A program made the position numbers and the translations under genes. Below, one piece after another: positions 1,232-26,900 of a stretch of DNA of 64,000 nucleotides (positions within the stretch are counted from its first letter, which is position 1; the number at the start of each line of letters is the position of its first letter). The stretch is taken from NCBI GenBank assembly GCA_046563655.1, contig JAJCTO010000009.1:1054001-1118000 (forward strand), given 5' to 3'. The notes beneath the pieces are model-generated. The model made no database searches, was not told the DNA's origin, and saw only the letters and a program-made list of their open reading frames with translations. Source of the DNA: Yuukianura sp. NJ FZ-2021 (Eukaryota).

Positions 1232-1383
1232 GAAATCCTCATAAAAAGGGCTACAGGAACCCACTTTCACTTGCTGTGTTCTCCCTCATCTTGTGACTTT
1301 TTTTAATGAAAATTTGTTTCAAAACAAATCATTCAAAAAACCTCCACGCGGAGCGATGCCGGGTGAAAAGGAGTTACTTTTCT
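1232..1383 (+). repeat. Representative monomer B (152 bp), a diverged paralogue of A that nearly always precedes C
   Basis: The first half aligns to A. The second half reads AATCATTCAAAAAACCTCCACGCGGAGCGATGCCGGGTGAAAAGGAGTTAC, collinear with but diverged from A. The T-run length varies between copies. Confidence 0.93.
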
Positions 1384-1619
1384 GAAATCCTCCTGAAAAG
1401 TACTACAGGAACCCAAATTTAATTGGCGTGGATAGGTCGCAATTAAATCTGGTTAGAGCGTACTTAAAAGTCTGAATGAACCGCTCTGCCGCGGATTTTA
1501 TTTTGGTTTGGAATACGGCACCCAGGGCAATGTCGAGCACCATTTTGACGCAAAACGACTTAAATTTGTGAGAATGAACATGCAAATGTGAGAATGAACA
1601 GAAAGTAAATTACATTTTT
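1384..1619 (+). repeat. Representative monomer C (236 bp)
   Basis: Shares only the ~31-bp head and the ATTTTT end with A/B. Its body contains the TTTAATTG..CAATTAAA dyad and a TGTGAGAATGAACA direct repeat with 20-bp period. Confidence 0.93.
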
Positions 1620-4600: not shown

Positions 4601-7600
4601 GAACATGCAAATGTGAGAATGAACAGAAAGTAAATTACATTTTTGAAATCCTCATAAAAAGAGCTACAGGAACCCACTTTCACTTGCTGTGTCGTCAATC
4701 ATCTCGTGACTTTGTTTTATGAAAATTTGTTTCAAAACAAATCATTCAAAAAACCTCCACGTGGAGCGATGCCGGGTGAAAAGGAGTTACTTTTCTGAAA
4801 TCCTCCTGAAAAGTACTACAGGAACCCAAGTTTAATTGGTGTGGATAAATCGCAATTAAATCTGGTTAGAGCGTACTTAAAAGTCTGAATGAACCGCTCT
4901 GTCTCGAATATTATCTTGGGTTGGTATATGGCACCCAGGGCAATGTCGAGCACCATTTTGACGCAAAACGACTTAAATTTGTGAGAATGAACATGCAAAT
5001 GTGAGAATTAACAGAAAGTAAATTACATTTTTGAAATCCTCATAAAAAGTGCTACAGGAACCCACTTTCACTTGCTGTGTCGTCCCTCATCTCGTGACCT
5101 TTTTTTATGAAAATTTGTTTCAAAACAAATCATTCGAAAAACCTCCACGCGGAGCGATGCCGGGTGAAAAGGAGTTACTTTTCTGAAATCCTCCTGAAAA
5201 GTACTACAGGAACCCAAGTTTAATTGGTGTGGATAAATCGCAATTAAATCTGGTTAGAGCGTACTTAAAAGTCTGAATGAACCGCTCTGTCTCGAATATT
5301 ATCTTGGGCTGGAATACGGCACCCAGGGCAATGTCTAGCACCATTTTGACGCAAAACGACTTAAATTTGTGAGAATGAACATGCAAATGTGAGAATGAAC
5401 AGAAAGTAAATTACATTTTTGAAATCCTCATAAAAAGGGCTACAGGAACCCACTTTCACTTGCTGTGTCGTCCATCATCTTGTTACCTTTATTTATGAAA
5501 ATTCATGTTTCAAAACAAAGAATTCAAAAGAAATGCATTCCAGAACGATGCTGGGTAAAAGTCAACAATATTTTTGAAATCCTCATAAAAAGGGCTACAG
5601 GAACCCACTTTCACTTGCTGTGTTCTCCCTCATCTTGTGACTTTTTTTAATGAAAATTTGTTTCAAAACAAATCATTCAAAAAACCTCCACGCGGAGCGA
5701 TGCCGGGTGAAAAGGAGTTACTTTTCTGAAATCCTCCTGAAAAGTACTACAGGAACCCAAATTTAATTGGCGTGGATAGGTCGCAATTAAATCTGGTTAG
5801 AGCGTACTTAAAAGTCTGAATGAACCGCTCTGCCGCGGATTTTATTTTGGTTTGGAATACGGCACCCAGGGCAATGTCGAGCACCATTTTGACGCAAAAC
5901 GACTTAAATTTGTGAGAATGAACATGCAAATGTGAGAATGAACAGAAAGTAAATTACATTTTTGAAATCCTCATAAAAAGAGCTACAGGAACCCACTTTC
6001 ACTTGCTGTGTCGTCAATCATCTCGTGACTTTGTTTTATGAAAATTTGTTTCAAAACAAATCATTCAAAAAACCTCCACGCGGAGCGATGCCGGGTGAAA
6101 AGGAGTTACTTTTCTGAAATCCTCCTGAAAAGTACTACAGGAACCCAAGTTTAATTGGTGTGGATAAATCGCAATTAAATCTGGTTAGAGCGTACTTAAA
6201 AGTCTGAATGAACCGCTCTGTCTCGAATATTATCTTGGGTTGGTATATGGCACCCAGGGCAATGTCGAGCACCATTTTGACGCAAAACGACTTAAATTTG
6301 TGAGAATGAACATGCAAATGTGAGAATGAACAGAAAGTAAATTACATTTTTGAAATCCTCATAAAAAGTGCTACAGGAACCCACTTTCACTTGCTGTGTC
6401 GTTTCTCATCTTGTTACCTTTATTTATGAAAATTCATGTTTCAGAAAAAAGAATTCAAAAGAAATGCATTCCAGAACGATGCTGGGTAAAAGTCAACTAT
6501 ATTTTTGAAATCCTCACAAAAAGGGCTACATGAACCCACTTTCACTTGCTGTGTCGTCAATCATCTCGTGACTTTTTTTATGAAAATTTGTTTCAAAACA
6601 AATCATTCAAAAAAACTCCACGCGGAGCGATGCCGGGTGAAAAGGAGTTACTTTTCTGACATCCTCCTGAAAAGTACTACAGGAACCCAAGTTTAATTGG
6701 TGTGGATAAATCGCAATTAAATCTGGTTAGAGCGTACTTAAAAGTCTGAATGAACCGCTCTGTCTCGAATATTATCTTGGGTTGGTATATGGCACCCAGG
6801 GCAATGTCGAGCACCATTTTGACGCAAAACGACTTAAATTTGTGAGAATGAACATGCAAATGTGAGAATGAACAGAAAGTAAATTACATTTTTGAAATCC
6901 TCATAAAAAGTGCTACAGGAACCCACTTTCACTTGCTGTGTCGTCCCTCATCTTGTTACCTTTATTTATGAAAATTCATGTTTCAAAACAAAGAATTCAA
7001 AAGAAATGCATTCCTGAACGATGCTGGGTAAAAGTCAAGTATATTTTTGAAATCCTCATAAAAAGGGCTACAGGAACCCACTTTCACTTGCTGTGTCGTT
7101 TCTCATCTTGTTACCTTTATTTATGAAAATTCATGTTTCAAAACAAAGAATTCAAAAGAAATGCATTCCGGAACGATGCTGGGTAAAAGTCAACTATATT
7201 TTTGAAATCCTCATGAAAAGGGCTACAGGAACCCACTTTCACTTGCTGTTTCGTTTCTCATCTTGTTACCTGTATTTATGAAAATTCATGTTTCAGAAAA
7301 AAGAATTCAAAAGAAATGCATTCCAGAACGATGCTGGATAAAAGTCAACTATATTTTTGAAATCCTCATAAAAAGGGCTACAGGAACCCACTTTCACTTG
7401 CTGTTTCGTTTCTCATCTTGTTACCTGTATTTATGAAAATTCATGTTTCAGAAAAAAGAATTCAAAAGAAATGCATTCCAGAACGATGCTGGGTAAAAGT
7501 CAACTATATTTTTGAAATCCTCATAAAAAGGGCTACAGGAACCCACTTTCACTTGCTGTGTCGTCCCTCATCTCGTGACTTTTTTTTGATGAAAATTTGT

Positions 7601-10600
7601 TTCAAAACAAATCATTCAAAAAACCTCCACGCGGAGCGATGCCGGGTGAAAAGGAGTTACTTTTCTGAAATCCTCCTGAAAAGTACTACAGGAACCCAAG
7701 TTTAATTGGTGTGGATAAATCGCAATTAAATCTGGTTAGAGCGTACTTAAAAGTCTGAATGAACCGCTCTGTCTCGAATATTATCTTGGGCTGGAATACG
7801 GCACCCAGGGCAATGTCGAGCACCATTTTGACGCAAAACGACTTAAATTTGTGAGAATGAACATGCAAATGTGAGAATGAACAGAAAGTAAATTACATTT
7901 TTGAAATCCTCATAAAAAGAGCTACAGGAACCCACTTTCACTTGCTGTGTCGTTTCTCATCTTGTTATCTTTACTTATGAAAATTCATGTTTCAAAACAA
8001 AGAATTCAAAAGAAATGCATTCCGGAACGATGCTGGGTAAAAGTCAACTATATTTTTGAAATCCTCATGAAAAGGGCTACAGGAACCCACTTTCACTTGC
8101 TGTTTCGTTTCTCATCTTGTTACCTGTATTTATGAAAATTCATGTTTCAGAAAAAAGAATTCAAAAGAAATGCATTCCAGAACGATGCTGGATAAAAGTC
8201 AACTATATTTTTGAAATCCTCATAAAAAGGGCTACAGGAACCCACTTTCACTTGCTGTGTCGTCCATCATCTTGTTACCTTTATTTATGAAAATTCATGT
8301 TTCAAAACAAAGAATCCAAAAGAAATGCATTCCGGAACGATGCTGGGTAAAAGTCAACTATATTTTTGAAATCCTCATGAAAAGGGCTACAGGAACCCAC
8401 TTTCACTTGCTGTTTCGTTTCTCATCTTGTTACCTGTATTTATGAAAATTCATGTTTCAGAAAAAAGAATTCAAAAGAAATGCATTCCAGAACGATGCTG
8501 GATAAAAGTCAACTATATTTTTGAAATCCTCATAAAAAGGGCTACTGGAACCCACTTTCACTTCCTGTGTCGTCCATCATCTTGTTACCTTTATTTATGA
8601 AAATTCATGTTTCAAAACAAAGAATTCAAAAGAAATGCATTCCGGAACGATGCTGGGTAAAAGTCAACTATATTTTTGAAATCCTCATGAAAAGGGCTAC
8701 AGGAACCCACTTTCACTTGCTGTTTCGTTTCTCATCTTGTTACCTGTATTTATGAAAATTCATGTTTCAGAAAAAAGAATTCAAAAGAAATGCATACCAG
8801 AACGATGCTGGATAAAAGTCAACTATATTTTTGAAATCCTCATAAAAAGGGCTACAGGAACCCACTTTCACTTGCTGTGTCGTCCATCATCTTGTTACCT
8901 TTATTTATGAAAATTCATGTTTCAAAACAAAGAATCCAAAAGAAATGCATTCCGGAACGATGCTGGGTAAAAGTCAACTATATTTTTGAAATCCTCATGA
9001 AAAGGGCTACAGGAACCCACTTTCACTTGCTGTTTCGTTTCTCATCTTGTTACCTGTATTTATGAAAATTCATGTTTCAGAAAAAAAATTCAAAAGAAAT
9101 GCATTCCAGAACGATGCTGGGTAAAAGTCAACAATATTTTTGAAATCCTCATAAAAAGGGCTACAGGAACCCACCTTCACTTGCTGTGTTCTCCCTCATC
9201 TTGTGACTTTTTTTAATGAAAATTTGTTTCAAAACAAATCATTCAAAAAACCTCCACGCGGAGCGATGCCGGGTGAAAAGGAGTTACTTTTCTGAAATCC
9301 TCCTGAAAAGTACTACAGGAACCCAAATTTAATTGGCGTGCATAGATCGCAATTAAATCCAGTTAGCGCGTACTTAAAAGTCTGTATGAACCGATCTGTC
9401 TCGAATATTATCTTGGGTTGGTATATGGCACCCAGGGCAATGTCGAGCACCATTTTGACGCAAAACGACTTAAATTTGTGAGAATGAACATGCAAATGTG
9501 AGAATGAACAGAAAGTAAATTACATTTTTGAAATCCTCATAAAAAGTGCTACAGGAACCCACTTTCACTTGCTGTGTCGTTTCTCATCTTGTTACCTTTA
9601 TTTATGAAAATTCATGTTTCAGAAAAAAGAATTCAAAAGAAATGCATTCCAGAACGATGCTGGGTAAAAGTCAACTATATTTTTGAAATCCTCACAAAAA
9701 GGGCTACATGAACCCACTTTCACTTGCTGTGTCGTCAATCATCTCGTGACTTTTTTTTATGAAAATTTGTTTCAAAACAAATCATTCAAAAGAACTCCAC
9801 GCGGAGCGATGCCGGGTGAAAAGGAGTTACTTTTCTGAAATCCTCCTGAAAAGTACTACAGGAACCCAAGTTTAATTGGTGTGGATAAATCGCAATTAAA
9901 TCTGGTTAGAGCGTACTTAAAAGTCTGAATGAACCGCTCTGTCTCGAATATTATCTTGGGTTGGTATATGGCACCCAGGGCAATGTCGAGCACCATTTTG
10001 ACGCAAAACGACTTAAATTTGTGAGAATGAACATGCAAATGTGAGAATGAACAGAAAGTAAATTACATTTTTGAAATCCTCATAAAAAGTGCTACAGGAA
10101 CCCACTTTCACTTGCTGTGTCGTTTCTCATCTTGTTACCTTTATTTATGAAAATTCATGTTTCAAAACAAAGAATTCAAAAGAAATGCATTCCGGAACGA
10201 TGCTGGGTAAAAGTCAACTATATTTTTGAAATCCTCATGAAAAGGGCTACAGGAACCCACTTTCACTTGCTGTTTCGTTTCTCATCTTGTTACCTGTATT
10301 TATGAAAATTCATGTTTCAGAAAAAAGAATTCAAAAGAAATGCATTCCAGAACGATGCTGGGTAAAAGTCAACTATATTTTTGAAATCCTCATGAAAAGG
10401 GCTACAGGAACCCACTTTCACTTGCTGTTTCGTTTCTCATCTTGTTACCTGTATTTATGAAAATTCATGTTTCAGAAAAAAGAATTCAAAAGAAATGCAT
10501 TCCAGAACGATGCTGGGTAAAAGTCAACTATATTTTTGAAATCCTCATGAAAAGGGCTACAGGAACCCACTTTCACTTGCTGTTTCGTTTCTCATCTTGT

Positions 10601-12263
10601 TACCTTCATTTATGAAAATTCATGTTTCAAAACAAAGAATTCAAAAGAAATGCATTCCAGAACGATGCTGGGTAAAAGTCAACAATATTTTTGAAATCCT
10701 CATAAAAAGGGCTACAGGAACCCACTTTCACTTGCTGTGTCGTCCATCATCTTGTTACCTTTATTTATGAAAATTTGTTTCAAAACAAATCATTCAAAAA
10801 ACCTCCACGCGGAGCGATGCCGGGTGAAAAGGAGTTACTTTTCTGAAATCCTCCTGAAAAGTACTACAGGAACCCAAATTTAATTGGCGTGGATAGGTCG
10901 CAATTAAATCTGGTTAGAGCGTACTTAAAAGTCTGAATGAACCGCTCTGCCGCGGATTTTATTTTGGTTTGGAATACGGCACCCAGGGCAATGTCGAGCA
11001 CCATTTTGACGCAAAACGACTTAAATTTGTGAGAATGAACATGCAAATGTGAGAATGAACAGAAAGTAAATTACATTTTTGAAATCCTCATAAAAAGAGC
11101 TACAGGAACCCACTTTCACTTGCTGTGTCGTTTCTCATCTTGTTACCTTTATTTATGAAAATTCATGTTTCAAAACAAAGAATTCAAAAGAAATGCATTC
11201 CGGAACGATGCTGGGTAAAAGTCAACTATATTTTTGAAATCCTCATGAAAAGGGCTACAGGAACCCACTTTCACTTGCTGTTTCGTTTCTCATCTTGTTA
11301 CCTGTATTTATGAAAATTCATGTTTCAGAAAGAAAATTCAAAAGAAATGCATTCCAGAACGATGCTGGATAAAAGTCAACTATATTTTTGAAATCCTCAT
11401 AAAAAGGGCTACAGGAACCCACTTTCACTTGCTGTGTCGTCCCTCATCTCGTGACTTTTTTTTATGAAAATTTGTTTCAAAACAAATCATTCAAAAAACC
11501 TCCACGCGGAGCGATGCCGGGTGAAAAGGAGTTATTTTTTTGAAATCCTCCTGAAAAGTACTACAGTAACCCAAGTTTAATTGGTGTGGATAAATCGCAA
11601 TTAAATCTGGTTAGAGCGTACTTAAAAGTCTGAATGAACCGCTCTGTCTCGAATATTATCTTGGGCTGGAATACGGCACCCAGGGCAATGTCGAGCACCA
11701 TTTTGACGCAAAACGACTTAAATTTGTGAGAATGAACATGCAAATGTGAGAATTAACAGAAAGTAAATTACATTTTTGAAATCCTCATAAAAAGAGCTAC
11801 AGGAACCCACTTTCACTTGCTGTGTCGTTTCTCATCTTGTTACCTTTACTTATGAAAATTCATGTTTCAAAACAAAGAATTCAAAAGAAATGCATTCCGG
11901 AACGATGCTGGGTAAAAGTCAACTATATTTTTGAAATCCTCATGAAAAGGGCTACAGGAACCCACTTTCACTTGCTGTTTCGTTTCTCATCTTGTTACCT
12001 GTATTTATGAAAATTCATGTTTCAGAAAAAAAATTCAAAAGAAATGCATTCCAGAACGATGCTGGATAAAAGTCAACTATATTTTTGAAATCCTCATAAA
12101 AAGGGCTACAGGAACCCACTTTCACTTGCTGTGTCGTCCCTCATCTCGTGACTTTTTTTTATGAAAATTTGTTTCAAAACAAATCATTCAAAAAACCTCC
12201 ACGCGGAGCGATGCCGGGTGAAAAGGAGTTATTTTTTTGAAATCCTCCTGAAAATTACTACAG

Positions 12264-12276
12264 TAACCCAAGTTTA
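12264..12276 (+). repeat. Target-site duplication, left copy (TAACCCAAGTTTA, 13 bp)
   Basis: Identical to 17942-17954. Removing the insert plus one copy restores an uninterrupted C monomer like the one at 3480-3715. Confidence 0.93.
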
Positions 12277-12306
12277 GAGCGCCAATTTGGATTTCAAAGG
12301 CAACAG

Positions 12307-13869
12307 ATGTGCTTTAATTGCGGTCCGCAATTAAATGATTTAATTGACCCGAAGGAAGGACGTTACCACTCGGAACCAACTACCAAAAGGACCAGTTGGA
12401 CACGTTCCGGAGGTAAGTCAACAAAACAATGTATCAAAGGTCACAAGGGGGTCACAATGACCCGAAAGACGAAAGTCTTAACGGGTGATGGTGTGCACCA
12501 TAGGTGTCCTTTTGCAAGACCCATAAGAAATACATATAAAAACTACCTGAAACTTAATACACATGATGAAACCCTTACTAAATATGCAATCAACGATGAA
12601 CTAATCAACTCTGGTGTGACTGATGAGGCACATGTCCATGGAGCTGGGGGAACGATGAGTCCCATACTGGTTACCATGATGTGGGTAAATCAGTCACAAA
12701 AGCCGAGTGGTTACGTATCTGAGTATGATTGGATATGTATTGGCAAATCAGACACAAGTAAAAAACAATACTATATACCGAACTTTGCTTACAGAAATCT
12801 GACCGTGATGTCAAACATACCGGTAGTCAACGTTGATGAAGACGAACTTCTTAATACTTCGGGAGACGAAGAAGTCTCCAAAGTCGACGAGATTGAAGAT
12901 GACGTGTTTGAGGAAGTACAAACCACGAACACAAATGAAGTACCAAATCAGAAAATGAACATCACTTCTAAATCCAGACCAAATGAGAAGTCAATCAGCG
13001 GTACGTTGAAGGGGCTTCAAATCAGCACTGCAGAACAACCAGAGAAAAAATCGCTCAAAAAAACCTTTTCAAAGGCTGAACGAAAAGCGTTTCATGAGGC
13101 TCGTCTACTCAAGAAAATCCACGACAAGGGTCATGTCGGAGTACCTAAAGCTGAAGTGGACACAGAAAATCCGAATATTCGTACTGAAAAGTTATCAACA
13201 TCAGGAGGAACCAAGCGTGGCTCAACTTCCTCACCAATGCCAACAGAACCTCCGTTGAAGAAACGAATGCCAGAAACTACAAGACAACTGGATTTCACTA
13301 AAACTGTATTTTCAGTAATTCGTGCTGATCACGAGGCAGCTATGCAGTACAGCGACTACGTCGGGCTCAAGGCTGTTCTAGAAATTGAAATTCTTGCGGA
13401 AAGACAAACAGCAGTTAGAATTGAAGAATGTCGGTTCGTCTCTGGGGGTCGAGGCAGATTTATCTGTGCCGACAGCAACTCAGCAGATTGGATCAAGACT
13501 AAACTACAGAAAATACTTGGAGGCACTTACGAGGGTGTCGATCCTTCTCAAATACCAGAATTGAATCTTACAAGACTGTGGTGCTGGATTGCAGGAAATG
13601 CTCCGGTATCTCAAGAATTCTTAGAAGCACTAAAAACGCAGAATCCTGGACTAGAATGTCAAAAATGGAGATGGAGAAAACCAATTCCGTCACAGAAAGG
13701 CCCGCCAGGTCACACTATTTTTGTGGATGCAGATCCAAACTCTATGAAGGTACTGGAAGAAGAACTGAAGTTTCGGCCATACTTTGGGCTGCGGCGTCTT
13801 GATCTTAGACGCACCAAAGCAGCCCCGCAAGAAGGCGAAGTAGAAGCCCCCGATGCTACTACTGAATAA
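12307..13869 (+). CDS. Retrotransposon ORF1 (nucleic-acid-binding, gag-like), C-terminal DUF4780-like domain
   Basis: 520-codon ORF upstream of pol. It has an acidic patch (VDEDELL), a basic low-complexity middle, and a C-terminal region (WIKTKL...LKTQNPGLECQKW...IFVDADPNS...PYFGL) resembling DUF4780 of LOA/R1-type ORF1s. The true start may be the in-frame ATG at 12808 (353 aa). Confidence 0.8.
   Translation: MCFNCGPQLNDLIDPKEGRYHSEPTTKRTSWTRSGGKSTKQCIKGHKGVTMTRKTKVLTGDGVHHRCPFARPIRNTYKNYLKLNTHDETLTKYAINDELINSGVTDEAHVHGAGGTMSPILVTMMWVNQSQKPSGYVSEYDWICIGKSDTSKKQYYIPNFAYRNLTVMSNIPVVNVDEDELLNTSGDEEVSKVDEIEDDVFEEVQTTNTNEVPNQKMNITSKSRPNEKSISGTLKGLQISTAEQPEKKSLKKTFSKAERKAFHEARLLKKIHDKGHVGVPKAEVDTENPNIRTEKLSTSGGTKRGSTSSPMPTEPPLKKRMPETTRQLDFTKTVFSVIRADHEAAMQYSDYVGLKAVLEIEILAERQTAVRIEECRFVSGGRGRFICADSNSADWIKTKLQKILGGTYEGVDPSQIPELNLTRLWCWIAGNAPVSQEFLEALKTQNPGLECQKWRWRKPIPSQKGPPGHTIFVDADPNSMKVLEEELKFRPYFGLRRLDLRRTKAAPQEGEVEAPDATTE
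12313..12716 (+). other. Putative structured RNA region at the element 5' end
   Basis: Multiple inverted repeats read by eye: 12313-12323/12325-12335 (11 bp), 12360-12373/12703-12716 (13 of 14), 12615-12624/12689-12698 (10 bp), and an AAGAC-GAAA-GTCTT tetraloop hairpin at 12466-12479 enclosed by ACCCG/CGGGT. Confidence 0.55.
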
Positions 13870-14055
13870 TAGTATAGGCTACTCAGTTCTATCTTCTTAC
13901 CAACAAAACTACACAATAGTTTCCCTACTTTGTACTACAGTACATCGCAATAAAAAATATATAAAAACTATATGTAGCAACAGTATTTACGACGATAGTC
14001 TAATAATACACATAAATGAAGCAGTGTATAGTTCATTGAATGCTACTGGAGTGGG

Positions 14056-17000
14056 ATGACAAGAGCATCACTAAGTAGTAACGTTGAATCCACTGCTTCT
14101 CTCCACACTAAAAACATTACTCCCGACTACAAAAAAATTTGCATAACTCAAATAAATTTACATAGGGCAGCCGCAGCAGCCTCCTCACTATGCAGAATGC
14201 TCATGCATGAGGGTACTTATGTAGCACTCATACAGGAACCAACAACACGAAAGGATAGCGTTTGCTATTTTGCTAAAAAGGGCTGTTACTACGTTAAATC
14301 TGGCGAAAGGCCCCGCGCATGCGTGGTAGTCTCAGACGGGTTGGACGTTTGGCCTATACTAGACGTTTCAGACAAAGACTGTATGGCTATTAAACTAACT
14401 TGCGGTGGCAACGCATTAGTATTAGCTTCGGTATATTTCCCTTACGACGGTACAGTAGAGTCTGAAACCGTAACAAAATTAATTCAATATTGTAAAAAGG
14501 CTGAATTACCCCTGATTATTGGCTGCGACTCAAACGCACATCACGTGTTATGGGGCAGCACTGGCAGTAATGCAAGGGGTGAACAATTACTAGAATTTCT
14601 AGAACAGAAAGATTTACATGTAGTAAACAAAGGACATAAACCAACTTTCGTTACAAGAAGTAGAAGGGAGGTTATTGATCTCACCATTGCTTCAACGGAA
14701 GTTATTGGTTTAATAACAAAATGGAGAGTAGGGGAAGAAGAGTCCTTCTCTGACCATAAGTACATAAAATGGGAACTTGGTCTTGAAAGTCCCAAAAATG
14801 AATTTTACCGAAATAAAAGAAAAACAGAATTTGACTACTACAACTTCTTAGTTGAGGAGGAACTTCAAAATGTGGAAATGACACAACCACTCAATGTTGA
14901 GCAACTTGATAAGGCAGTTAGCACTGTTAGTGAAATTCTAACAAAATGCTTTGAGAGAAGCTGCCCGTTAAAACGGGTACGCAAAACTGGACCAACGAAA
15001 AGCTATTGGACATCAACCCTCACATTGATGAGGAAAGCATCCATAAAGCTGCATCGTTTAACGCAACAAAATAATTACTCATATGAATCCTGGTTACTGT
15101 ACCAAGATTCACGCAATAAATACAATGCAGAACTGCGAAATGAAAAGCGCAGAGCCTGGAGAGACTATTGCAGTCAAGTGGAAAAAGTTCCACAGGCCTC
15201 CAGGGCTACCAAAATACTAGCTGGAGACAGAGTCATAGCTCTGGGTCCTATACAGCTAGAGAATGGGAGTTATACTGCCTCACCGGAAGCAACTTTAGAT
15301 TGTCTCCTGAATCATCACTTTCCAAACGACCCGCAGGCTCAAAGCGAGTTAGCGGGCTTAAACTATAATACTGATGGAGTATCAAATGATACTGAGACCA
15401 TCAACAAAATTGTTAGTGATGCAAAAATACTAGCATGCATAAACAGCTTTCAAGCATTCAAGAGCCCAGGGCCTGACAACATATTCCCAGCCTTGCTGCA
15501 GAAAGCACCACTAAAAATGATAAAATATCTCAACTTAATAGCCCGAGCATGCCTGCAACTTGGATATACTCCAATGTTGTGGAACAGGGCAAGGGTTGTC
15601 TTCATACCAAAGCCAGGAAAAGACAGCTATACCAAAGTTGGATCTTGGAGGCCAATCACATTAACATCATTCCTTTTAAAGGTTATGGAAAAACTAATAA
15701 GTAACTACATCAAAACTCCTGATGTTGTAGCCAGGCTAGAACAAAATGGACAATATGCCTACCTTAAGGGACGCAGCTGCGACTCTGCCCTGCACAATCT
15801 GGTAGGCAGAATTGAACGCTCACTGAAATCCAGCGAGCATGCTTTAGGCATGTTCTTGGATATAGAGGGAGCGTTCTCAGCAGCAACATTCAAATCAATG
15901 CTAGAGGCACTGAATCGATTCGAAGTTGACAAGACGGTTATCAACTGGATATCGTCCATGTTAACAAACAGAACCGTATACAGTGAACTGAATGGAAAAG
16001 TAATACACAGAACTGTACAGAAAGGATGCCCGCAAGGCGGCGTTCTTTCACCTCTCCTATGGAATATGGTTCTGGATGAACTACTGTATATTCTAAGAAC
16101 TAAATTTCCGCAGATTAACACGCAAGGGTTTGCGGACGATGTTTCCTTACTACAATGTGGCAAGGATATGTCGACAATTGCCAACATAATGCAACAAAGT
16201 CTAAACACTGTTGACAAATGGTGCAAAACGATTCGACTGGGGGTAAACCCCAATAAAATTGAAGCTGTACTATTCACAAACAGTAGAAAAATACCAAACT
16301 CTATATTACAACTAAACGGTATAAGCATATCTTACGGTAAGGTAGTCAAGCACCTTGGTGTATGGCTTGATTCCAAACTAACATGGACTGAACATTGTAA
16401 AACCAAAGCACTTGCAGGAGTAATCACCCTGCATCAGTGTAAACGAGCCATATCCACAACGTGGGGGCTCAATCCTAAAATATGTTGCTGGATTTATACT
16501 GCTATTGTCCGCCCGAGGATCACGCATGCGTGCGTTTGCTGGGCAACTGCAGTAACCAAACAAAATACACTAACCATGTTGCAAAAAGCGCAAAGGGCCG
16601 CATTGCTCAACATCACAGGGGCAATGCGATCTACGCCAACTGCGAGCATGGAGTGTATTATAGACATACGCCCAATCGACCTTCACATCATGACATTGTG
16701 CATTAAAACAATGTTAAGGTTAATTGACCATAAAGACTGGCTACCATGGAAATCCATGGGGCTTCTAAAAAGAAATACCCATATAAAACAATGTGAGGAA
16801 TGGAGAAATAATCTCCCACTCCTCATGCTACCAACTGAAACAAAATTCATAAATCAAATCTCACCTAATTACAATATACTAATAAAGAAACGGAAACATT
16901 GGGAAGAGGAGGGGGAGCCGAGGCGTAGCGCTTCGGTCCTCCAGGTCTTTACTGATGGATCTAAAATAAATTCTTCCGGTGCTGCATATGTAGTACTGAA

Positions 17001-17826
17001 TGGTAACAAAATACTACAAAGTGAACTATATCCCCTTGGACAGTGTACAAGCGTCTTTCAAGCGGAGGCGTACGCTTTACTCTCGGCTGTTGATTGGGTT
17101 GAAAAGACCCTGTCTACAGACCAATCAGAATATAAGAACATAACACTTGTTGAAATTTATATCGACAACCAAGGAGTTGTTAAAAGCCTAATGGGCAAAA
17201 ATGATGAGAGTACAACCCTTATTTATCAGTCCCACAGAACACTTAACAAAATCAACACAATATGTCCGGTAAATGTTAACTGGATACCAGCACATAAGGG
17301 GTACGTAGGCAATGAAATAGTGGACAGTTTAGCGAAGGCGGCTGCTTACACAAAATGTATTGGACCAGAACCAATATTACCAATCCCATACAGCACAATA
17401 GTAACTGCAATCAATGACTATTCCAGAACCTGTCATGAAAAAAGATGGCGTGCACAAAAAGGATGTGAGGACTCCAAAAAAGTCCTCACAAAAATATATA
17501 GTAAAAATGCTAAGCACTGCTTAAAACTAAATAGAGAAGATCTTAAATCTCTAACAGAATTGATCACAGGACATGGACAATATGCCAAACACCTCTATAG
17601 GATAGGGATCGCGGAGTCGCCTTTATGTCCACACTGTGGATATAAGGAAGAGACCCGTGATCACCTACTGATGGAGTGTGAGGCACACATGAACCCAAGG
17701 CTAAAGGCATTTGGGGTATACCTCTTGAGAAAAGAGGATCTTAAAAACACTTCTCTCTCTGAACTAACGGAATTCGTCCGACAATTAAAAAGAGCGAAGG
17801 TTAGCGGCGGGAGAGTTATTCCCTGA
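14056..17826 (+). CDS. Retrotransposon ORF2 polyprotein: APE endonuclease, reverse transcriptase, RNase H, CCHC zinc knuckle
   Basis: 1256 aa, intact. APE motifs QINLH, LIQEP, SVYFP, GCDSNAHH, IDLT and SDH (~14130-14760). RT motifs KSPGPD, WRPITL, FLDIEGAF, GCPQGGVLSPLLWN, FADD (16129-16140) and KHLGV. RNase H motifs FTDGS, FQAEAYA, YIDNQ and WIPAHKG..GNEIVD (~16940-17345). C-x2-C-x8-H-x4-C at 17626-17679. Confidence 0.97.
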   Translation: MTRASLSSNVESTASLHTKNITPDYKKICITQINLHRAAAAASSLCRMLMHEGTYVALIQEPTTRKDSVCYFAKKGCYYVKSGERPRACVVVSDGLDVWPILDVSDKDCMAIKLTCGGNALVLASVYFPYDGTVESETVTKLIQYCKKAELPLIIGCDSNAHHVLWGSTGSNARGEQLLEFLEQKDLHVVNKGHKPTFVTRSRREVIDLTIASTEVIGLITKWRVGEEESFSDHKYIKWELGLESPKNEFYRNKRKTEFDYYNFLVEEELQNVEMTQPLNVEQLDKAVSTVSEILTKCFERSCPLKRVRKTGPTKSYWTSTLTLMRKASIKLHRLTQQNNYSYESWLLYQDSRNKYNAELRNEKRRAWRDYCSQVEKVPQASRATKILAGDRVIALGPIQLENGSYTASPEATLDCLLNHHFPNDPQAQSELAGLNYNTDGVSNDTETINKIVSDAKILACINSFQAFKSPGPDNIFPALLQKAPLKMIKYLNLIARACLQLGYTPMLWNRARVVFIPKPGKDSYTKVGSWRPITLTSFLLKVMEKLISNYIKTPDVVARLEQNGQYAYLKGRSCDSALHNLVGRIERSLKSSEHALGMFLDIEGAFSAATFKSMLEALNRFEVDKTVINWISSMLTNRTVYSELNGKVIHRTVQKGCPQGGVLSPLLWNMVLDELLYILRTKFPQINTQGFADDVSLLQCGKDMSTIANIMQQSLNTVDKWCKTIRLGVNPNKIEAVLFTNSRKIPNSILQLNGISISYGKVVKHLGVWLDSKLTWTEHCKTKALAGVITLHQCKRAISTTWGLNPKICCWIYTAIVRPRITHACVCWATAVTKQNTLTMLQKAQRAALLNITGAMRSTPTASMECIIDIRPIDLHIMTLCIKTMLRLIDHKDWLPWKSMGLLKRNTHIKQCEEWRNNLPLLMLPTETKFINQISPNYNILIKKRKHWEEEGEPRRSASVLQVFTDGSKINSSGAAYVVLNGNKILQSELYPLGQCTSVFQAEAYALLSAVDWVEKTLSTDQSEYKNITLVEIYIDNQGVVKSLMGKNDESTTLIYQSHRTLNKINTICPVNVNWIPAHKGYVGNEIVDSLAKAAAYTKCIGPEPILPIPYSTIVTAINDYSRTCHEKRWRAQKGCEDSKKVLTKIYSKNAKHCLKLNREDLKSLTELITGHGQYAKHLYRIGIAESPLCPHCGYKEETRDHLLMECEAHMNPRLKAFGVYLLRKEDLKNTSLSELTEFVRQLKRAKVSGGRVIP

Positions 17827-17927
17827 AATTAAATTGGTGTTATGGAGAGAGCGAAATAGGCCCGACAGTGCGCCTCATCGCCGTGATCCTCTCTGTGCCT
17901 AATGCACTTAGAGATACCTCTGAAAAA
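17827..17927 (+). other. Retrotransposon 3' UTR with candidate stem-loops
   Basis: Lies between the ORF2 stop and the tail. Nested pairings AGAGA/TCTCT, GCGA/TCGC and AGGC/GCCT (17846-17894), followed by GTGC/GCAC and AGAG/CTCT mini-hairpins. Confidence 0.6.
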
Positions 17928-17943
17928 CATACATACATACATA
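17928..17943 (+). repeat. (CATA)4 microsatellite 3' tail of the LINE
   Basis: AAAAA followed by CATACATACATACATA; the last TA is shared with the right TSD. Confidence 0.9.
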
Positions 17944-17954
17944 ACCCAAGTTTA
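17942..17954 (+). repeat. Target-site duplication, right copy (TAACCCAAGTTTA)
   Basis: Identical to 12264-12276; the satellite C monomer resumes in register afterwards. Confidence 0.93.
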
Positions 17955-20900
17955 ATTGGTGTGGATAAATCGCAATTAAATCTGGTTAGAGCGTACTTAA
18001 AAGTCTGAATGAACCGCTCTGTCTCGAATATTATCTTGGGCTGGAATACGGCACCCAGGGCAATGTCGAGCACCATTTTGACGCAAAACGACTTAAATTT
18101 GTGAGAATGAACATGCAAATGTGAGAATGAACAGAAAGTAAATTACATTTTTGAAATCCTCATAAAAAGAGCTACAGGAACCCACTTTCACTTGCTGTGT
18201 CTTCCCTCATCTCGTGACTTTTTTTTATGAAAATTTGTTTCAAAACAAATCATTCAAAAAACCTCCACGCGGAGCGATGCCGGGTGAAAAGGAGTTGTTT
18301 TTTTGAAATCCTCCTGAAAAGTACTACAGTAACCCAAGTTTAATTGGTGTGGATAAATCGCAATTAAATCTGGTTAGAGCGTACTTAAAAGTCTGAATGA
18401 ACCGCTCTGTCTCGAATATTATCTTGGGCTGGAATACGGCACCCAGGGCAATGCAATGTCTAGCACCATTTTGACGCAAAACGACTTAAATTTGTGAGAA
18501 TGAACATGCAAATGTGAGAATGAACAGAAAGTAAATTACATTTTTGAAATCCTCATAAAAAGTGCTACAGGAACCCACTTTCACTTGCTGTGTCGTCCAT
18601 CATCTTGTTACCTTCATTTATGAAAATTCATGTTTCAAAACAAAGAATTCAAAAGAAATGCATTCCAGAACGATGCTGGATAAAAGTCAACAATATTTTT
18701 GAAATCCTCATAAAAAGGGCTACAGGAACCCACTTTCATTTGCTGTGTTCTCCCTCATCTTGTGACTTTTTTTAATGAAAATTTGTTTCAAAACAAATCA
18801 TTCAAAAAACCTCCACGCGGAGCGATGCCGGGTGAAAAGGAGTTACTTTTCTGAAATCCTCCTGAAAAGTACTACAGGAACCCAAGTTTAATTGGTGTGG
18901 ATAAATCGCAATTAAATCTGGTTAGAGCGTACTTAAAAGTCTGAATGAACCGCTCTGTCTCGAATATTATCTTGGGTTGGTATATGGCACCCAGGGCAAT
19001 GTCGAGCACCATTTTGACGCAAAACGACTTAAATTTGTGAGAATGAACATGCAAATGTGAGAATGAACAGAAAGTAAATTACATTTTTGAAATCCTCATA
19101 AAAAGTGCTACAGGAACCCACTTTCACTTGCTGTGTCGTTTCTCATCTTGTTACCTTTATTTATGAAAATTCATGTTTCAGAAAAAAGAATTCAAAAGAA
19201 ATGCATTCCAGAACGATGCTGGGTAAAAGTCAACTATATTTTTGAAATCCTCAGAAAAAGGGCTACATGAACCCACTTTCACTTGCTGTGTCGTCAATCA
19301 TCTCGTGACTTTTTTTTATGAAAATTTGTTTCAAAACAAATCATTCAAAAAAACTCCACGCGGAGCGATGCCGGGTGAAAAGGAGTTACTTTTCTGACAT
19401 CCTCCTGAAAAGTACTACAGGAACCCAAGTTTAATTGGTGTGGATAAATCGCAATTAAATCTGGTTAGAGCGTACTTAAAAGTCTGAATGAACCGCTCTG
19501 CCGCGGATTTTATTTTGGGTTGGAATACGGCACCCAGGGCAATGTCGAGCACCATTTTGACGCAAAACGACTTAAATTTGTGAGAATGAACATGCAAATG
19601 TGAGAATGAACAGAAAGTAAATTACATTTTTGAAATCCTCATAAAAAGAGCTACAGGAACCCACTTTCACTTGCTGTGTCGTCCCTCATCTTCGTGACTT
19701 TGTTTTATGAAAATTTGTTTCAAAACAAATCATTCAAAAAACCTCCACGCGGAGCGATGCCGGGTGAAAAGGAGTTACTTTTCTGAAATCCTCCTGAAAA
19801 GTACTACAGGAACACAAGTTTAATTGGCGTGGATAGATCGCAATTAAATCTGGTTAGAGCGTACTTACAAGTCTGAATGAACCGCTCTGCCTCAGATTTT
19901 ATCTTGGGTTGGAATACAGCACCCTGGGCAATGTCGAGCACCATTTTGACGCAAAACGACTTAAACTTGTGAGAATGAATATGCAAATGTGAGAATGAAC
20001 AGAAAGTAAATTACATTTTTGAAATCCTCATAAAAAGGGCTACAGGAACCCACTTTCACTTGCTGTGTCGTCCATCATCTTGTTACCTTTATTTATGAAA
20101 ATTCATGTTTCAAAACAAAGAATTCAAAAGAAATACATTCCAGAACGATGCTGGGTAAAAGTCAACAATATTTTTGAAATCCTCATAAAAAGGGCTACAG
20201 GAACCCACTTTCACTTGCTGTGTTCTCCCTCATCTTGTGACTTTTTTTAATGAAAATTTGTTTCAAAACAAATCATTCAAAAAACCTCCACGCGGAGCGA
20301 TGCCGGGTGAAAAGGAGTTACTTTTCTGAAATCCTCCTGAAAAGTACTACAGGAACCCAAATTTAATTGGCGTGGATAGGTCGCAATTAAATCTGGTTAG
20401 AGCGTACTTAAAAGTCTGAATGAACCGCTCTGCCGCGGATTTTATTTTGGTTTGGAATACGGCACCCAGGGCAATGTCGAGCACCATTTTGACGCAAAAC
20501 GACTTAAATTTGTGAGAATGAACATGCAAATGTGAGAATGAACAGAAAGTAAATTACATTTTTGAAATCCTCATAAAAAGAGCTACAGGAACCCACTTTC
20601 ACTTGCTGTGTCGTTTCTCATCTTGTTACCTTTATTTATGAAAATTCATGTTTCAAAACAAAGAATTCAAAAGAAATGCATTCCGGAACGATGCTGGGTA
20701 AAAGTCAACTATATTTTTGAAATCCTCATAAAAAGGGCTACAGGAACCCACTTTCACTTGCTGTGTCGTCCCTCATCTCGTGACTTTTTTTATGAAAATT
20801 TGTTTCAAAACAAATCATTCAAAAAAACTCCACGCGGAGCGATGCCAGGTGAAAATGAGTTACTTTTCTGAAATCCTCCTGAAAAGTACTACAGGAACCC

Positions 20901-23900
20901 AAGTTTAATTGGTGTGGATAAATCGCAATTAAATCTGGTTAGAGCGTACTTAAAAGTCTGAATGAACCGCTCTGCCTCAGATTTTATCTTGGGTTGGAAT
21001 ACGGCACCCAGGGTAATGTCGAGCACCATTTTGACGCAAAACGACTTAAATTTGTGAGAATGAACATGCAAATGTGAGAATGAACAGAAAGTAAATTACA
21101 TTTTTGAAATCCTCATAAAAAGTTTTACAGGAACCCACTTTCACTTGCTGTGTCGTTTCTCATCTTGTTACCTTTATTTATGAAAATTCATGTTTCAAAA
21201 CAAAGAATTCAAAAGAAATACATTCCAGAACGATGCTGGGTAAAAGTCAACTATATTTTTGAAATCCTCATAAAAAGGGCTACAGGAACCCACTTTCACT
21301 TGCTGTGTCGTCCATCATCTTGTTACTTTATTTATAAAAATTCATGTTTCAAAACAAAGAATTCAAAAGAAATGCATTCCAGAACGATGCTGGGTAAAAG
21401 TCAACAATATTTTTGAAATCCTCATAAAAAGGGCTACAGGAACCCACTTTCACTTGCTGTGTTCTCCCTCATCTTGTGACTTTTTTTAATGAAAATTTGT
21501 TTCAAAACAAATCATTCAAAAAACCTCCACGCGGAGCGATGCCGGGTGAAAAGGAGTTACTTTTCTGAAATCCTCCTGAAAAGTACTACAGGAACCCAAA
21601 TTTAATTGGCGTGCATAGATCGCAATTACATCTGGTTAGAGCGTACTTAAAAGTCTGAATGAACCGCTCTGCCGCGGATTTTGTTTTGGTTTGGAATACG
21701 GCACCCAGGGCAATGTCGAGCACCATTTTGACGCAAAACGACTTAAATTTGTGAGAATGAACATGCAAATGTGAGAATGAACAGAAAGTAAATTACATTT
21801 TTGAAATCCTCATAAAAAGTGCTACAGGAACCCACTTTCACTTGCTGTGTCGTTTCTCATCTTGTTACCTTTATTTATGAAAATTCATGTTTCAAAACAA
21901 AGAATTCAAAAGAAATGCATTCCGGAACGATGCTGGGTAAAAGTCAACTATATTTTTGAAATCCTCATAAAAAGGGCTACAGGAACCCACTTTCACTTGC
22001 TGTGTCGTCCCTCATCTCGTGACTTTTTTTATGAAAATTTGTTTCAAAACAAATCATTCAAAAAAACTCCACGCGGAGCGATGCCGGGTGAAAATGAGTT
22101 ACTTTTCTGAAAACCTCCTGAAAAGTACTACAGGAACCCAAGTTTAATTGGTGTGGATAAATCGCAATTAAATCTGGTTAGAGCGTACTTAAAAGTCTGA
22201 ATGAACCGCTCTGCCTCAGATTTTATCTTGGGTTGGAATACGGCACCCAGGGTAATGTCGAGCACCATTTTGACGCAAAACGACTTAAATTTGTGAGAAT
22301 GAACATGCAAATGTGAGAATGAACAGAAAGTAAATTACATTTTTGAAATCCTCATGAAAAGGGCTACAGGAACCCACTTTCACTTGCTGTTTCGTTTCTC
22401 ATCTTGTTACCTGTATTTATGAAAATTCATGTTTCAAAACAAAGAATTCAAAAGAAATACATTCCAGAACGATGCTGGGTAAAAGTCAACTATATTTTTG
22501 AAATACTCATAAAAAGGGCTACAGGAACCCACTTTCACTTGCTGTGTCGTCCATCATCTTGTTACTTTATTTATAAAAATTCATGTTTCAAAACAAAGAA
22601 TTCAAAAGAAATACATTCCAGAACGATGCTGGGTAAAAGTCAACAATATTTTTGAAATCCTCATAAAAAGGGCTACAGGAACCCACTTTCACTTGCTGTG
22701 TCGTCCCTCATCTTGTGACTTTTTTTAATGAAAATTTGTTTCAAAACAAATCATTCAAAAAACCTCCACGCGGAGCGATCCCGGGTGAAAAGGAGTTACT
22801 TTTCTGAAATCCTCCTGAAAAGTACTACAGGAACCCAAATTTAATTGGCGTGGATATGTCGCAATTAAATCTGGTTAGAGCGTACTTAAAAGTCTGAATG
22901 AACCGCTCTGCCGCGGATTTTATCTTGGGTTTGGAATACGGCACCCAGGGCAATGTCGAGCACCATTTTGACGCAAAACGACTTAAATTTGTGAGAATGA
23001 ACATGCAAATGTGAGAATGAACAGAAAGTAAATTACATTTTTGAAATCCTCATAAAAAGAGCTACAGGAACCCACTTTCACTTGCTGTGTCGTTTCTCAT
23101 CTTGTTACCTTTACTTATGAAAATTCATGTTTCAAAACAAAAAATTCAAAAGAAATGCATTCCGGAACGATGCTGGGTAAAAGTCAACTATATTTTTGAA
23201 ATCCTCATGAAAAGGGCTACAGGAACCCACTTTCACTTGCTGTGTCGTCCATCATCTTGTTACCTTTATTTATGAAAATTCATGTTTCAAAACAAAGAAT
23301 TCAAAAGAAATGCATTCCAGAACGATGCTGGGTAAAAGTCAACAATATTTTTGAAATCCTCATAAAAAGGGCTACAGGAACCCACTTTCACTTGCTGTGT
23401 TCTCCCTCATCTTGTGACTTTTTTTTAATGAAAATTTGTTTCAAAACAAATCATTCAAAAAACCTCCACGCGGAGCGATGCCGGGTGAAAAGGAGTTACT
23501 TTTCTGAAATCCTCCTGAAAAGTACTACAGGAACCCAAATTTAATTGGCGTGGATAGATCGCAATTAAATCCGGTTAGCGCGTACTTAAAAGTGTGTATG
23601 AACCGCTCTGTCTCGAATATTATCTTGGGTTGGAATACGGCACCCAGGGCAATGTCGAGCACCATTTTGACGCAAAACGACTTAAATTTGTGAGAATGAA
23701 CATGCAAATGTGAGAATGAACAGAAAGTAAATTACATTTTTGAAATCCTCATAAAAAGTGCTACAGGAACCCACTTTCACTTGCTGTGTCGTCCCTCATC
23801 TCGTGACTTTGTTTTATGAAAATTTGTTTCAAAACAAATCATTCAAAAAACCTCCACGCGAAGCGATGCCGGGTGAAAAGGAGTTACTTTTCTGAAATCC

Positions 23901-26900
23901 TCCTGAAAAGTACTACAGGAACACAAGTTTAATTGGCGTGGATAGATCGCAATTAAATCTGGTTAGAGCGTACTTAAAAGTCTGAATGAACCGCTCTGCC
24001 TCAGATTTTATCTTGGGTTGGAATACGGCACCCAGGGCAATGTCGAGCACCATTTTGACGCAAAACGACTTAAATTTGTGAGAATGAACATGCAAATGTG
24101 AGAATGAACAGAAAGTAAATTACATTTTTGAAATCCTCATAAAAAGGGCTACAGCAACCCACTTTCACTTGCTGTGTCGTCCATCATCTTGTTACTTTAT
24201 TTATGAAAATTCATGTTTCAAAACAAATCATTCGAAAAACCTCCACGCGGAGCGATGCCGGGTGAAAAGGAGTTACTTTTCTGAAATCCTCCTGAAAAGT
24301 ACTACAGGAACACAAGTTTAATTGGCGTGGATAGATCGCAATTAAATCTGGTTAGAGCGTACTTACAAGTCTGAATGAACCGCTCTGCCTCAGATTTTAT
24401 CTTGGGTTGGAATACAGCACCCTGGGCAATGTCGAGCACCATTTTGACGCAAAACGACTTAAATTTGTGAGAATGAACATGCAAATGTGAGAATGAACAG
24501 AAAGTAAATTACATTTTTGAAATCCTCATAAAAAGTGCTACAGGAACCCACTTTCACTTGCTGTGTCGTCCCTCATCTTGTTACCTTTATTTATGAAAAT
24601 TCATGTTTCAAAACAAAGAATTCAAAAGAAATACATTCCAGAACGATGCTGGGTAAAAGTCAACTATATTTTTGAAATACTCATAAAAAGGGCTACAAGA
24701 ACCCACTTTCACTTGCTGTGTCGTCCCTCATCTTGTGACCTTTTTTTATGAAAATTTGTTTCAAAACAAATCATTCGAAAAACCTCCACGCGGAGCGATG
24801 CCGGGTGAAAAGGAGTTACTTTTCTGAAATCCTCCTGAAAAGTACTACAGGAACCCAAGTTTAATTGGCGTGGATAGGTCGCAATTAAATCTGGTTAGAG
24901 CGTACTTAAAAGTCTGAATGAACCGCTCTGCCGCGGATTTTATGTTGGTTTGGAATACGGCACCCAGGGCAATGTCGAGCACCATTTTGACGCAAAACGA
25001 CTTAAATTTGTGAGAATGAACATGCAAATGTGAGAATGAACAGAAAGTAAATTACATTTTTGAAATCCTCATAAAAAGTGCTACAGGAACCCACTTTCAC
25101 TTGCTGTGTCGTTTCTCATCTTGTTACCTTTATTTATGAAAATTCATGTTTCAAAACAAAGAATTCAAAAGAAATGCATTCCGGAACGATGCTGGGTAAA
25201 AGTCAACTATATTTTTGAAATCCTCATAAAAAGGGCTACAGGAACCCACTTTCACTTGCTGTGTCGTCCCTCATCTCGTGACTTTTTTTATGAAAATTTG
25301 TTTCAAAACAAATCATTCAAAAAAACTCCACGCGGAGCGATGCCAGGTGAAAATGAGTTACTTTTCTGAAATCCTCCTGAAAAGTACTACAGGAACCCAA
25401 GTTTAATTGGTGTGGATAAATCGCAATTAAATCTGGTTAGAGCGTACTTAAAAGTCTGAATGAACCGCTCTGCCTCAGATTTTATCTTGGGTTGGAATAC
25501 GGCACCCAGGGTAATGTCGAGCACCATTTTGACGCAAAACGACTTAAATTTGTGAGAATGAACATGCAAATGTGAGAATGAACAGAAAGTAAATTACATT
25601 TTTGAAATCCTCATAAAAAGTGCTACAGGAACCCACTTTCACTTGCTGTTTCGTTTCTCATCTTGTTACCTGTATTTATGAAAATTCATGTTTCAGAAAA
25701 AAGAATTCAAAAGAAATGCATTCCAGAACGATGCTGGGTAAAAGTCAACAATATTTTTGAAATCCTCATAAAAAGGGCTACAGGAACCCACTTTCACTTG
25801 CTGTGTTCTCCCTCATCTTGTGACTTTTTTTAATGAAAATTTGTTTCAAAACAAATCATTCAAAAAACCTCCACGCGGAGCGATGCCGGGTGAAAAGGAG
25901 TTACTTTTCTGAAATCCTCCTGAAAAGTACTACAGGAACCCAAATTTAATTGGCGTGGATAGGTCGCAATTAAATCTGGTTAGAGCGTACTTAAAAGTCT
26001 GAATGAACCGCTCTGCCGCGGATTTTATTTTGGTTTGGAATACGGCACCCAGGGCAATGTCGAGCACCATTTTGACGCAAAACGACTTAAATTTGTGAGA
26101 ATGAACATGCAAATGTGAGAATGAACAGAAAGTAAATTACATTTTTGAAATCCTCATAAAAAGAGCTACAGGAACCCACTTTCACTTGCTGTGTCGTTTC
26201 TCATCTTGTTACCTTTATTTATGAAAATTCATGTTTCAAAACAAAGAATTCAAAAGAAATGCATTCCGGAACGATGCTGGGTAAAAGTCAACTATATTTT
26301 TGAAATCCTCATAAAAAGGGCTACAGGAACCCACTTTCACTTGCTGTGTCGTCCCTCATCTTGTTACCTGTATTTATGAAAATTCATGTTTCAAAACAAA
26401 GAATACAAAAGAAATGCACGCGGAACGATGCCGGGTAAAAGTCAACTATATTTTTGAAATCCTCCTGAAAAGTACTACAGGAACCCAAGTTTAATTGGTG
26501 TGGATTCTCATCGCAATTAAATCATGGTTAGAGCGTACTTAAAAGTCTGAATGAACCGCTCTGCCTCAGATTTTATCTTGGGTTGGAATACGGCACCCAG
26601 GGTAATGTCGAGCACCATTTTGTTACGCAAAACGACTTAAATTTGTGAGAATGAACATGCAAATGTGAGAATGAACAGAAAGTAAATTACATTTTTGAAA
26701 TCCTCATAAAAAGTGCTACAGGAACCCACTTTCACTTGCTGTTTCGTTTCTCATCTTGTTACCTGTATTTATGAAAATTCATGTTTCAGAAAAAAGAATT
26801 CAAAAGAAATGCATTCCAGAACGATGCTGGATAAAAGTCAACTATATTTTTGAAATCCTCATAAAAAGGGCTACAGGAACCCACTTTCACTTGCTGTGTC

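Follow-up and report, generated by a model that had tools for sequence, protein, structure and literature searches.

The described systems closest to the retrotransposon that we report here are the LOA, R1 and I clades of retroelements that lack long terminal repeats (non-LTR elements), or long interspersed nuclear elements (LINEs), and the G2/Jockey-3 elements of Drosophila. Our element lies within a satellite array of Yuukianura sp. NJ FZ-2021 (assembly GCA_046563655.1, contig JAJCTO010000009.1), in a stretch of 64,000 nucleotides (positions 1,054,001 to 1,118,000 of the forward strand) that we call the window and from whose first base all coordinates are counted. Elements of the LOA clade (LOA, Lian-Aa1, Bilbo and Trim) have two open reading frames (ORFs), the second of which encodes an APE-type endonuclease, a reverse transcriptase (RT) and then RNase H. 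Those of the R1 clade (R1, TRAS, SART and Waldo) combine an APE endonuclease with a location in tandem repeats and a short tandem-repeat tail; they are not known to carry RNase H, and the target of Waldo is ACAY. The I factor and its clade have the domain order APE-RT-RNase H-CCHC and a short tandem-repeat tail instead of poly(A), which in the I factor is (TAA)n, and ORF1 of the I factor carries CCHC knuckles. Jockey elements are not known to have RNase H. According to a passage of PMC2790886, RNase H follows RT in all known LOA elements, and R1 and LOA are closely related clades; a passage of PMC4640811 does not name LOA among the target-specific lineages, and PMC6516634 describes G2/Jockey-3 at Drosophila centromeres, an example of centromere-enriched non-LTR elements.

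The window element resembles the LOA clade in having two ORFs and the same order of domains in ORF2, and differs from it in being at most 43% identical to any protein in the collection searched and in lying on a long branch; an ORF1 with a DUF4780 domain that appears to be a tandem RNA recognition motif (RRM)-like module, with no CCHC knuckle seen, and an (ACAT)4 tail also set it apart. With the R1 clade it shares the APE endonuclease, the location in a tandem repeat and the short tandem-repeat tail, but it has RNase H, and just one of 105 equivalent sites is filled. The APE-RT-RNase H-CCHC order and the tail in place of poly(A) recall the I factor, although CCHC knuckles were not seen in the translation of the window ORF1. 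Like G2/Jockey-3 as described in PMC6516634, the element is embedded in satellite-rich DNA; G2/Jockey-3 belongs to another clade, and its enrichment was found by CENP-A chromatin immunoprecipitation over many copies, whereas here one copy is known from sequence.

We propose that the window holds a full-length, coding-competent, young copy of an unsampled family of APE-type non-LTR retrotransposons, the insertion of which was untargeted or weakly biased and has been tolerated in the satellite, and we put the probability of this reading at about 0.72. It is most likely an ordinary young LINE insertion, tolerated and surviving intact in gene-free satellite DNA, and a dedicated satellite-homing mechanism is not required.

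A recent insertion into the satellite array

The window consists of ~58.3 kb of one tandem-repeat family with a single interruption. The satellite is composite, its three related subunits a, p and B measuring 155, 153 and 235 bp, respectively, and being arranged as (a)n-p-B strings, with higher-order units of 388 bp (pB), 543 bp (apB) and 697 bp (aapB). When the window was divided into 100-bp tiles, 12251-17950 was the sole stretch with three or fewer in-window copies, most other tiles having more than 100, and tiling with the three subunits left gaps only at 12277-17937 and, for 50 bp, at 37155-37204. Neither tile copy counts nor subunit tiling revealed any non-satellite DNA in the window besides the element. 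The GC content, 36-38% across the window, rises to 41% at 12-18 kb, where there is also a strong A-over-T skew. The element and its junctions comprise the following features:

12277..17942, + strand: body of the non-LTR retrotransposon, 5,666 bp, without LTRs or terminal inverted repeats (tiles, subunit tiling, repeat scan)
12265..12276, + strand: target-site duplication, left copy, AACCCAAGTTTA (with T12264 included, 13 bp; repeat scan, junction comparison)
17943..17954, + strand: right copy of the target-site duplication, AACCCAAGTTTA (repeat scan, junction comparison)
12222..12276, + strand: left part of the B subunit that the element splits, positions 1-55 (blastn against the B reference, 96.4%)
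17955..18134, + strand: right piece of the interrupted B subunit (subunit tiling)

The 13-mer TAACCCAAGTTTA stands at 12264-12276 and again at 17942-17954, with differing bases outside the two copies (left G/A, right G/A). T17942 can be assigned either to the duplication or, as its last base, to the (ACAT)4 tail (17927-17942), so that the target-site duplication is certain for 12 bp and has a maximum of 13 bp. The repeat scan found nothing but this 13-mer duplication at the ends of the element, and neither LTRs nor terminal inverted repeats. The insertion point is position 55/56 of a B subunit, with the element in the same orientation as the array and located in its more diverged, irregular domain, outside the homogeneous block. 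Because excision of the element together with one copy of the duplication regains a B subunit of 235 bp and an aapB unit of 697 bp, the duplication is real and a chance repeat is excluded.

The restored 697-bp unit is identical at 693 of 697 positions to its empty upstream neighbour (11063-11759), which makes the insertion younger than a very recent local duplication, and it is 99.3% identical to the unit at 1602-2299. The coding sequence supplies a separate measure: 4.9% of the possible substitutions in its 5,328 bases create a stop, and intact ORFs become improbable (P = 0.05) past ~0.3-1.1% divergence, depending on the assumed indel rate. A recent insertion is thus supported on two counts, the restored unit and the intact ORFs. 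The initial annotation of this DNA had described a recently inserted element as the only interruption of ~58 kb of satellite, and both statements hold, the first by the 693/697 match and the second by tile counts and subunit tiling; its perfect 13-bp target-site duplication is perfect and real, with the thirteenth base possibly belonging to the tail.

The unit that bears the insertion is a local variant of B with ACAGTAACCC and ATTGGT, most B units having ACAGGAACCC and ATTGGC. The restored 60-mer, allowing up to two mismatches, is found at sixteen sites within 1-26 kb and at none past 26 kb.

Coding capacity and conserved catalytic residues

The element is laid out as follows, with the domains of ORF2 listed after it:

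12277..12306, + strand: 5' sequence before the first ATG, 30 nt (frame reading)
12307..13869, + strand: ORF1, 520 amino acids (aa), with a C-terminal RNA-binding-like domain (ORF list, Pfam, HMMER)
13870..14055, + strand: inter-ORF spacer, 186 nt, with six in-frame stops (frame reading)
14056..17826, + strand: ORF2, 1,256 aa, with APE, RT, RNase H and CCHC (ORF list, Pfam, alignment)
17827..17926, + strand: 3' untranslated region (UTR; fold z -1.48)
17927..17942, + strand: (ACAT)4 tail, where other elements have poly(A) (no second ACAT run in the window)
14128..14790, + strand: APE-type endonuclease, ORF2 aa ~25-245 (PF14529, Exo_endo_phos_2, 2.3e-24)
15604..16296, + strand: reverse transcriptase, ORF2 aa 517-747 (PF00078, RVT_1, 1.8e-33)
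16939..17346, + strand: RNase H, ORF2 aa 962-1097 (PF00075, 2.1e-09)
17626..17679, + strand: C-terminal CCHC motif, C1191, C1194, H1203 and C1208 of ORF2 (invariant alignment columns)

Both ORF1 (12307-13869) and ORF2 (14056-17826) are open. They share a frame, and the six in-frame stops of the 186-nt spacer between them indicate two cistrons and exclude a read-through product. In the 30 nt between the start of the element and the first ATG, the frame of ORF1 is already open throughout. At the other end, the ACAT run, unique in the window, occurs on the 3' side only and is therefore a tail and not part of the target.

We examined the catalytic residues of ORF2 in an alignment of 24 sequences, the window protein and 23 relatives hand-picked from the 120 listed by the database search. 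The APE residues N34, E61, D158, N160, H162, D233 and H234 are present at invariant or nearly invariant columns, as are D602 and the FADD pair D694 and D695 of RT, D967, E1004, D1037 and D1090 of RNase H, and C1191, C1194, H1203 and C1208 of the CCHC motif; a zf-RVT match in Pfam is weak (E 0.002) and below cut-off. Identity to the 23 relatives is 39% for APE, 46% for RT and 32% for RNase H. Among solved structures, compared by sequence, APE matches the TRAS1 endonuclease (1WDU, 9.5e-18) and the R1Bm endonuclease (2EI9, 9.9e-08), and RT matches LINE-1 ORF2p (E ~1e-28) and also R2. Since the APE domain, at 39% identity, is collinear with those of RNase H-bearing relatives and with the rest of the protein, there is no sign of a borrowed or recently imported endonuclease. 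With APE and RT intact, a target-site duplication, a 3' tail and neither LTRs nor terminal inverted repeats, the element is an APE-type non-LTR retrotransposon (LINE). Its ORFs are intact, its ends exact and its empty site known, which should make it useful, as a well-preserved reference copy, for repeat annotation in the host, and it is a candidate active element.

The predicted folds of the 3' UTR (z -1.48) and of the first 124 nt (z -1.40) do not differ significantly in stability from those of shuffles. Shortly after the start codon of ORF1, at 12313-12335, lies an inverted repeat with perfect 10-bp arms and a loop of 3 nt (TTTAATTGCG GTC CGCAATTAAA), which may give the RNA a hairpin close to its 5' end and is unused in the minimum free energy fold of the first 124 nt. 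On the opposite strand, an antisense ORF of 189 aa (15759-16328, - strand) within the RT-coding part of ORF2 is probably due to chance.

A divergent LOA-like family

We searched residues 480-1100 of ORF2 against 5.8 billion proteins, and the best match was 43% identical. RNase H (PF00075) is present in all 120 of the relatives listed, and the few that are named belong to Collembola, Coleoptera, Lepidoptera, Diptera and a rotifer. Among the relatives is a protein called 'Lian-aa1 retrotransposon protein' in UniRef (35% identity, E 4.9e-113). The contigs of the relatives are 5.1-6.5 kb, similar in length to the window copy, and the host of the family is probably an arthropod.

In a FastTree phylogeny of 121 proteins, comprising the window protein and its 120 database matches and no R1, I or LOA reference sequences, the window protein occupies a long terminal branch (0.99) within a clade of 14-20 sequences (support 97-99) that includes an Orchesella protein, and the Lian-aa1-named protein lies at a path distance of 2.83. 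The long branch, together with a best match of only 43% identity, points to a new family. RNase H (aa 962-1097, with D-E-D-D present) stands downstream of RT, as in LOA elements, and its presence separates the element from the R1 clade. The best explanation of these sequence comparisons is that the element belongs to the RNase H-bearing R1/LOA/I group, with Lian/LOA-like elements as its closest named relatives, and it seems reasonable to regard it as a new, divergent LOA-like family, a label that derives from architecture and the nearest named relative, not from a phylogeny of reference elements. On that footing, namely RNase H downstream of RT and a Lian-aa1-named relative, we retain the LOA-like label of the initial annotation, and its description of an intact element is confirmed by the two open ORFs and by the preservation of all invariant catalytic residues in the 24-sequence alignment.

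ORF1 and the DUF4780 domain

ORF1 contains a match to Pfam DUF4780 (1.9e-10), located as follows:

13378..13806, + strand: DUF4780 region of ORF1, aa 358-500 (Pfam, AlphaFold2, Foldseek)

A word-indexed search found no homologues of ORF1 at E<=0.001, whereas 65 relatives, four of them at E<=1e-10, passed that threshold when 1.84 billion representatives were scanned in full with HMMER. All 65 align solely to aa ~260-510, the DUF4780 region, and the N-terminal ~260 aa had no detectable relatives in the same scan. In the ESM Atlas, the clusters nearest to ORF1 consist of arthropod DUF4780 proteins (score 0.91). Ahead of the domain stand 260-300 aa in the window ORF1 as against 130-200 aa in its relatives, so ORF1 is not N-terminally truncated. 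One Leguminivora protein (P0119) has DUF4780 fused to APE-RT-RNase H; the resemblance of ORF1 to the DUF4780-bearing N-terminus of this protein is weak and confined to the equivalent domain (E 0.14).

AlphaFold2 run on an alignment of 56 sequences gave a model with a mean pLDDT of 82.4, exceeding 90 over the DUF4780 domain; a single-sequence prediction of the ORF1 C-terminus was useless (pLDDT 34), and we used the alignment-based model instead. The modelled domain consists of two beta-alpha-beta-beta-alpha-beta units, and Foldseek matched it in the PDB to the tandem RRMs of DND1, HuR, HuD and Sxl (E 2.8e-05 to 1e-03, probability 0.96-1.00). The TM-scores are low (0.2-0.36), and the RRM likeness is therefore at the level of the fold only, and of a predicted model. 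Inspection of the ORF1 translation revealed no CCHC knuckle. From the model, DUF4780 appears to be the tandem RRM-like RNA-binding module of ORF1 in this LINE lineage, and the predicted ORF1 protein (ORF1p) is most likely the RNA-binding partner of the element. An uncharacterised Pfam family would thereby gain a likely meaning, as a tandem RRM-like RNA-binding module of arthropod LINE ORF1 proteins.

Mode of insertion and target preference

Integration of the element can be pictured from established LINE biology, that is, standard target-primed reverse transcription, with the nick sites taken from the junctions. A bicistronic RNA would encode ORF1p, with its RNA-binding, tandem RRM-like domain, and the ORF2 protein. 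APE would nick a B subunit in its bottom strand, at 5'-...GGGTT^ACTG-3' or a base beyond, and RT would use target-primed reverse transcription to copy the RNA, starting at the (ACAU)n end. The duplication would then arise from a further nick, in the top strand at 5'-AAGTTTA^ATTGG-3' and 12-13 bp from the first. Read from the junction sequence, the (ACAU)n end has no useful pairing to the primer strand. We infer the activity of the element, the nick positions and the absence of targeting.

The evidence in the window leans mildly against strong site-specific targeting. Only one of its 105 B subunits is occupied; the identical 12-mer is present at 66 of the 100 equivalent sites found, all of them empty except the insertion site, and the related sites in ~220 a and p subunits are all empty. 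The window contains no other copies or fragments of the element, 5'-truncated ones included (best blastn match 27 bits, E 3.7), and no other ACAT runs or tail remnants. Nor did an Rfam search of the window at gathering scores return any match, ribosomal DNA, 5S, transfer RNA and small nuclear RNA having been considered as possible targets. We found no report of satellite-specific LOA elements in open-access text.

Local alignment of the whole element with the satellite consensus gave scores of just 24-26, at unrelated places. Shuffles reached the score observed against the consensus in 71 of 500 trials for the 5' end, 314 of 500 for the spacer and 194 of 500 for the 3' UTR, and the score observed against the local unit in 51, 292 and 92 of 500, respectively. 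By eye, the B sequence immediately downstream of the insertion site had looked similar to the element at its 5' end (GAGCGCCAATT...) and where its 3' UTR begins (AATTAAATTGGTGT...), as if the satellite derived from the element or the ends of the element from the satellite; we rejected this idea, the resemblance being no better than that of shuffles and attributable to chance.

Several points weigh against our preferred reading of an untargeted or weakly biased insertion. One insertion in one 64-kb window cannot exclude targeting, and if the family is very young, copies would be few, as would truncated ones. The telomere-repeat-specific TRAS1 endonuclease is the best solved relative of the APE domain and R1 and LOA are close, so a capacity for repeat targeting is phylogenetically near. 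That the only foreign DNA in 58 kb is an intact element would at least fit a preference. The leader, of 30 nt, is unusually short, and the copy may be slightly 5'-truncated or promoter-less; its activity is putative, judged from intact ORFs and conserved residues.

A regional preference is, in our view, unlikely. It would mean that integration or retention is favoured in centromeric or heterochromatic chromatin, in the manner of G2/Jockey-3, with the satellite as a mere local substrate. The array is layered like many (peri)centromeric satellites, a homogeneous block (98-98.6%) adjoining a diverged one (~95%), and centromere-enriched non-LTR elements are known (PMC6516634), but the element sits in the diverged block and not in the homogeneous one, the sequence contains no centromere mark, and a single copy in 64 kb compares poorly with the retroelement-dense centromere islands that the same source describes in Drosophila. 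The initial annotation had raised the possibility of a satellite- or centromere-associated retroelement, with the proviso that targeting cannot be established from a single copy; were satellite homing true, the element would provide a system outside Drosophila for the interplay of retroelements with satellites or centromeres, but the present evidence does not lead in that direction.

Sequence-specific homing is somewhat less probable again. Here APE, alone or with a target-pairing read-through RNA, would recognise the B site ACAG(G/T)AACCCAAGTTTA^ATTGG, as R1 does its site in ribosomal DNA and TRAS and SART theirs in telomeric repeats. The insertion is precise and lies within a sequence repeated 100-105 times in the window, its orientation matches that of the array, the solved structures closest to the APE domain are those of the TRAS1 and R1Bm endonucleases, and R1 and LOA are closely related clades in a passage of PMC2790886. 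Set against this are the single occupied site among 105 B subunits and the emptiness of all ~220 related subunits of types a and p, the absence from the window of truncated copies and tail remnants, an (ACAU)n end without useful homology to the primer strand, UTRs no more like the satellite than shuffles are, and the RNase H of the element, which R1-clade elements are not known to have. LOA, moreover, is not named among target-specific lineages in a passage of PMC4640811. In its fullest form, which we likewise hold to be improbable, no LINE lineage of LOA type (RNase H-bearing) would have evolved such homing before, here to B position 55/56 of a complex, possibly centromeric satellite, with the window copy as a very young founder. 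If so, the lineage would be a counterpart of R1, TRAS and SART from outside the R1 clade, target-specific integration would no longer be confined to the R1 and Tx1 clades, and the occupancy of 1/105 without truncated copies would reflect a recent invasion or rapid purging by homogenisation of the array.

An assembly artefact, in which a chimeric read or mis-join placed a LINE into a satellite contig, can be dismissed as extremely improbable even though satellite arrays are generally error-prone in assemblies, because a mis-join would not create exact junctions, a perfect 12-13-bp duplication and, on excision, a regained 235-bp subunit and a 697-bp unit 99.4% like its neighbour.

Organisation of the satellite array

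The array flanks the element on both sides:

1..12276, + strand: left part of the satellite array, a, p and B in one orientation as (a)n-p-B (Tandem Repeats Finder (TRF), subunit tiling)
17943..64000, + strand: right part of the satellite array, a regular 543-bp a-p-B repeat from ~40 kb (TRF, tiling, unit identities)

Subunit tiling counted 120 a, 100 p and 105 B subunits in the window, the split B being counted once, and all have the same orientation, with no minus-strand matches. B is a diverged relative of a and p, and TRF reports periods of 155/388/310/464. From 1 to ~38 kb the array is irregular, with a variable number of a subunits and a B-B identity of ~95-96%; between 40 and 64 kb, higher-order units of 543 bp (a-p-B) follow one another regularly and are 98-98.6% alike. 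No sequence mark supports a centromeric identity of the array, and a 29-base satellite string had no match in the literature.

The second gap left by subunit tiling (37155-37204) falls in a 50-bp internal tandem duplication (37133-37232) of an a-type subunit. The array shows no sign of strong CpG depletion: the observed/expected ratio of CpG is 0.93 in the satellite (18000-64000), compared with 0.70 in the element (12277-17942). Every B subunit contains an imperfect 21-bp direct repeat (TGGATAGAGCGCAATTAAATC / TGGTTAGAGCGTACTTAAAAG), for example at 18339-18382, which accounts for ~65 TRF reports and is located ~10 bp downstream of the insertion site.

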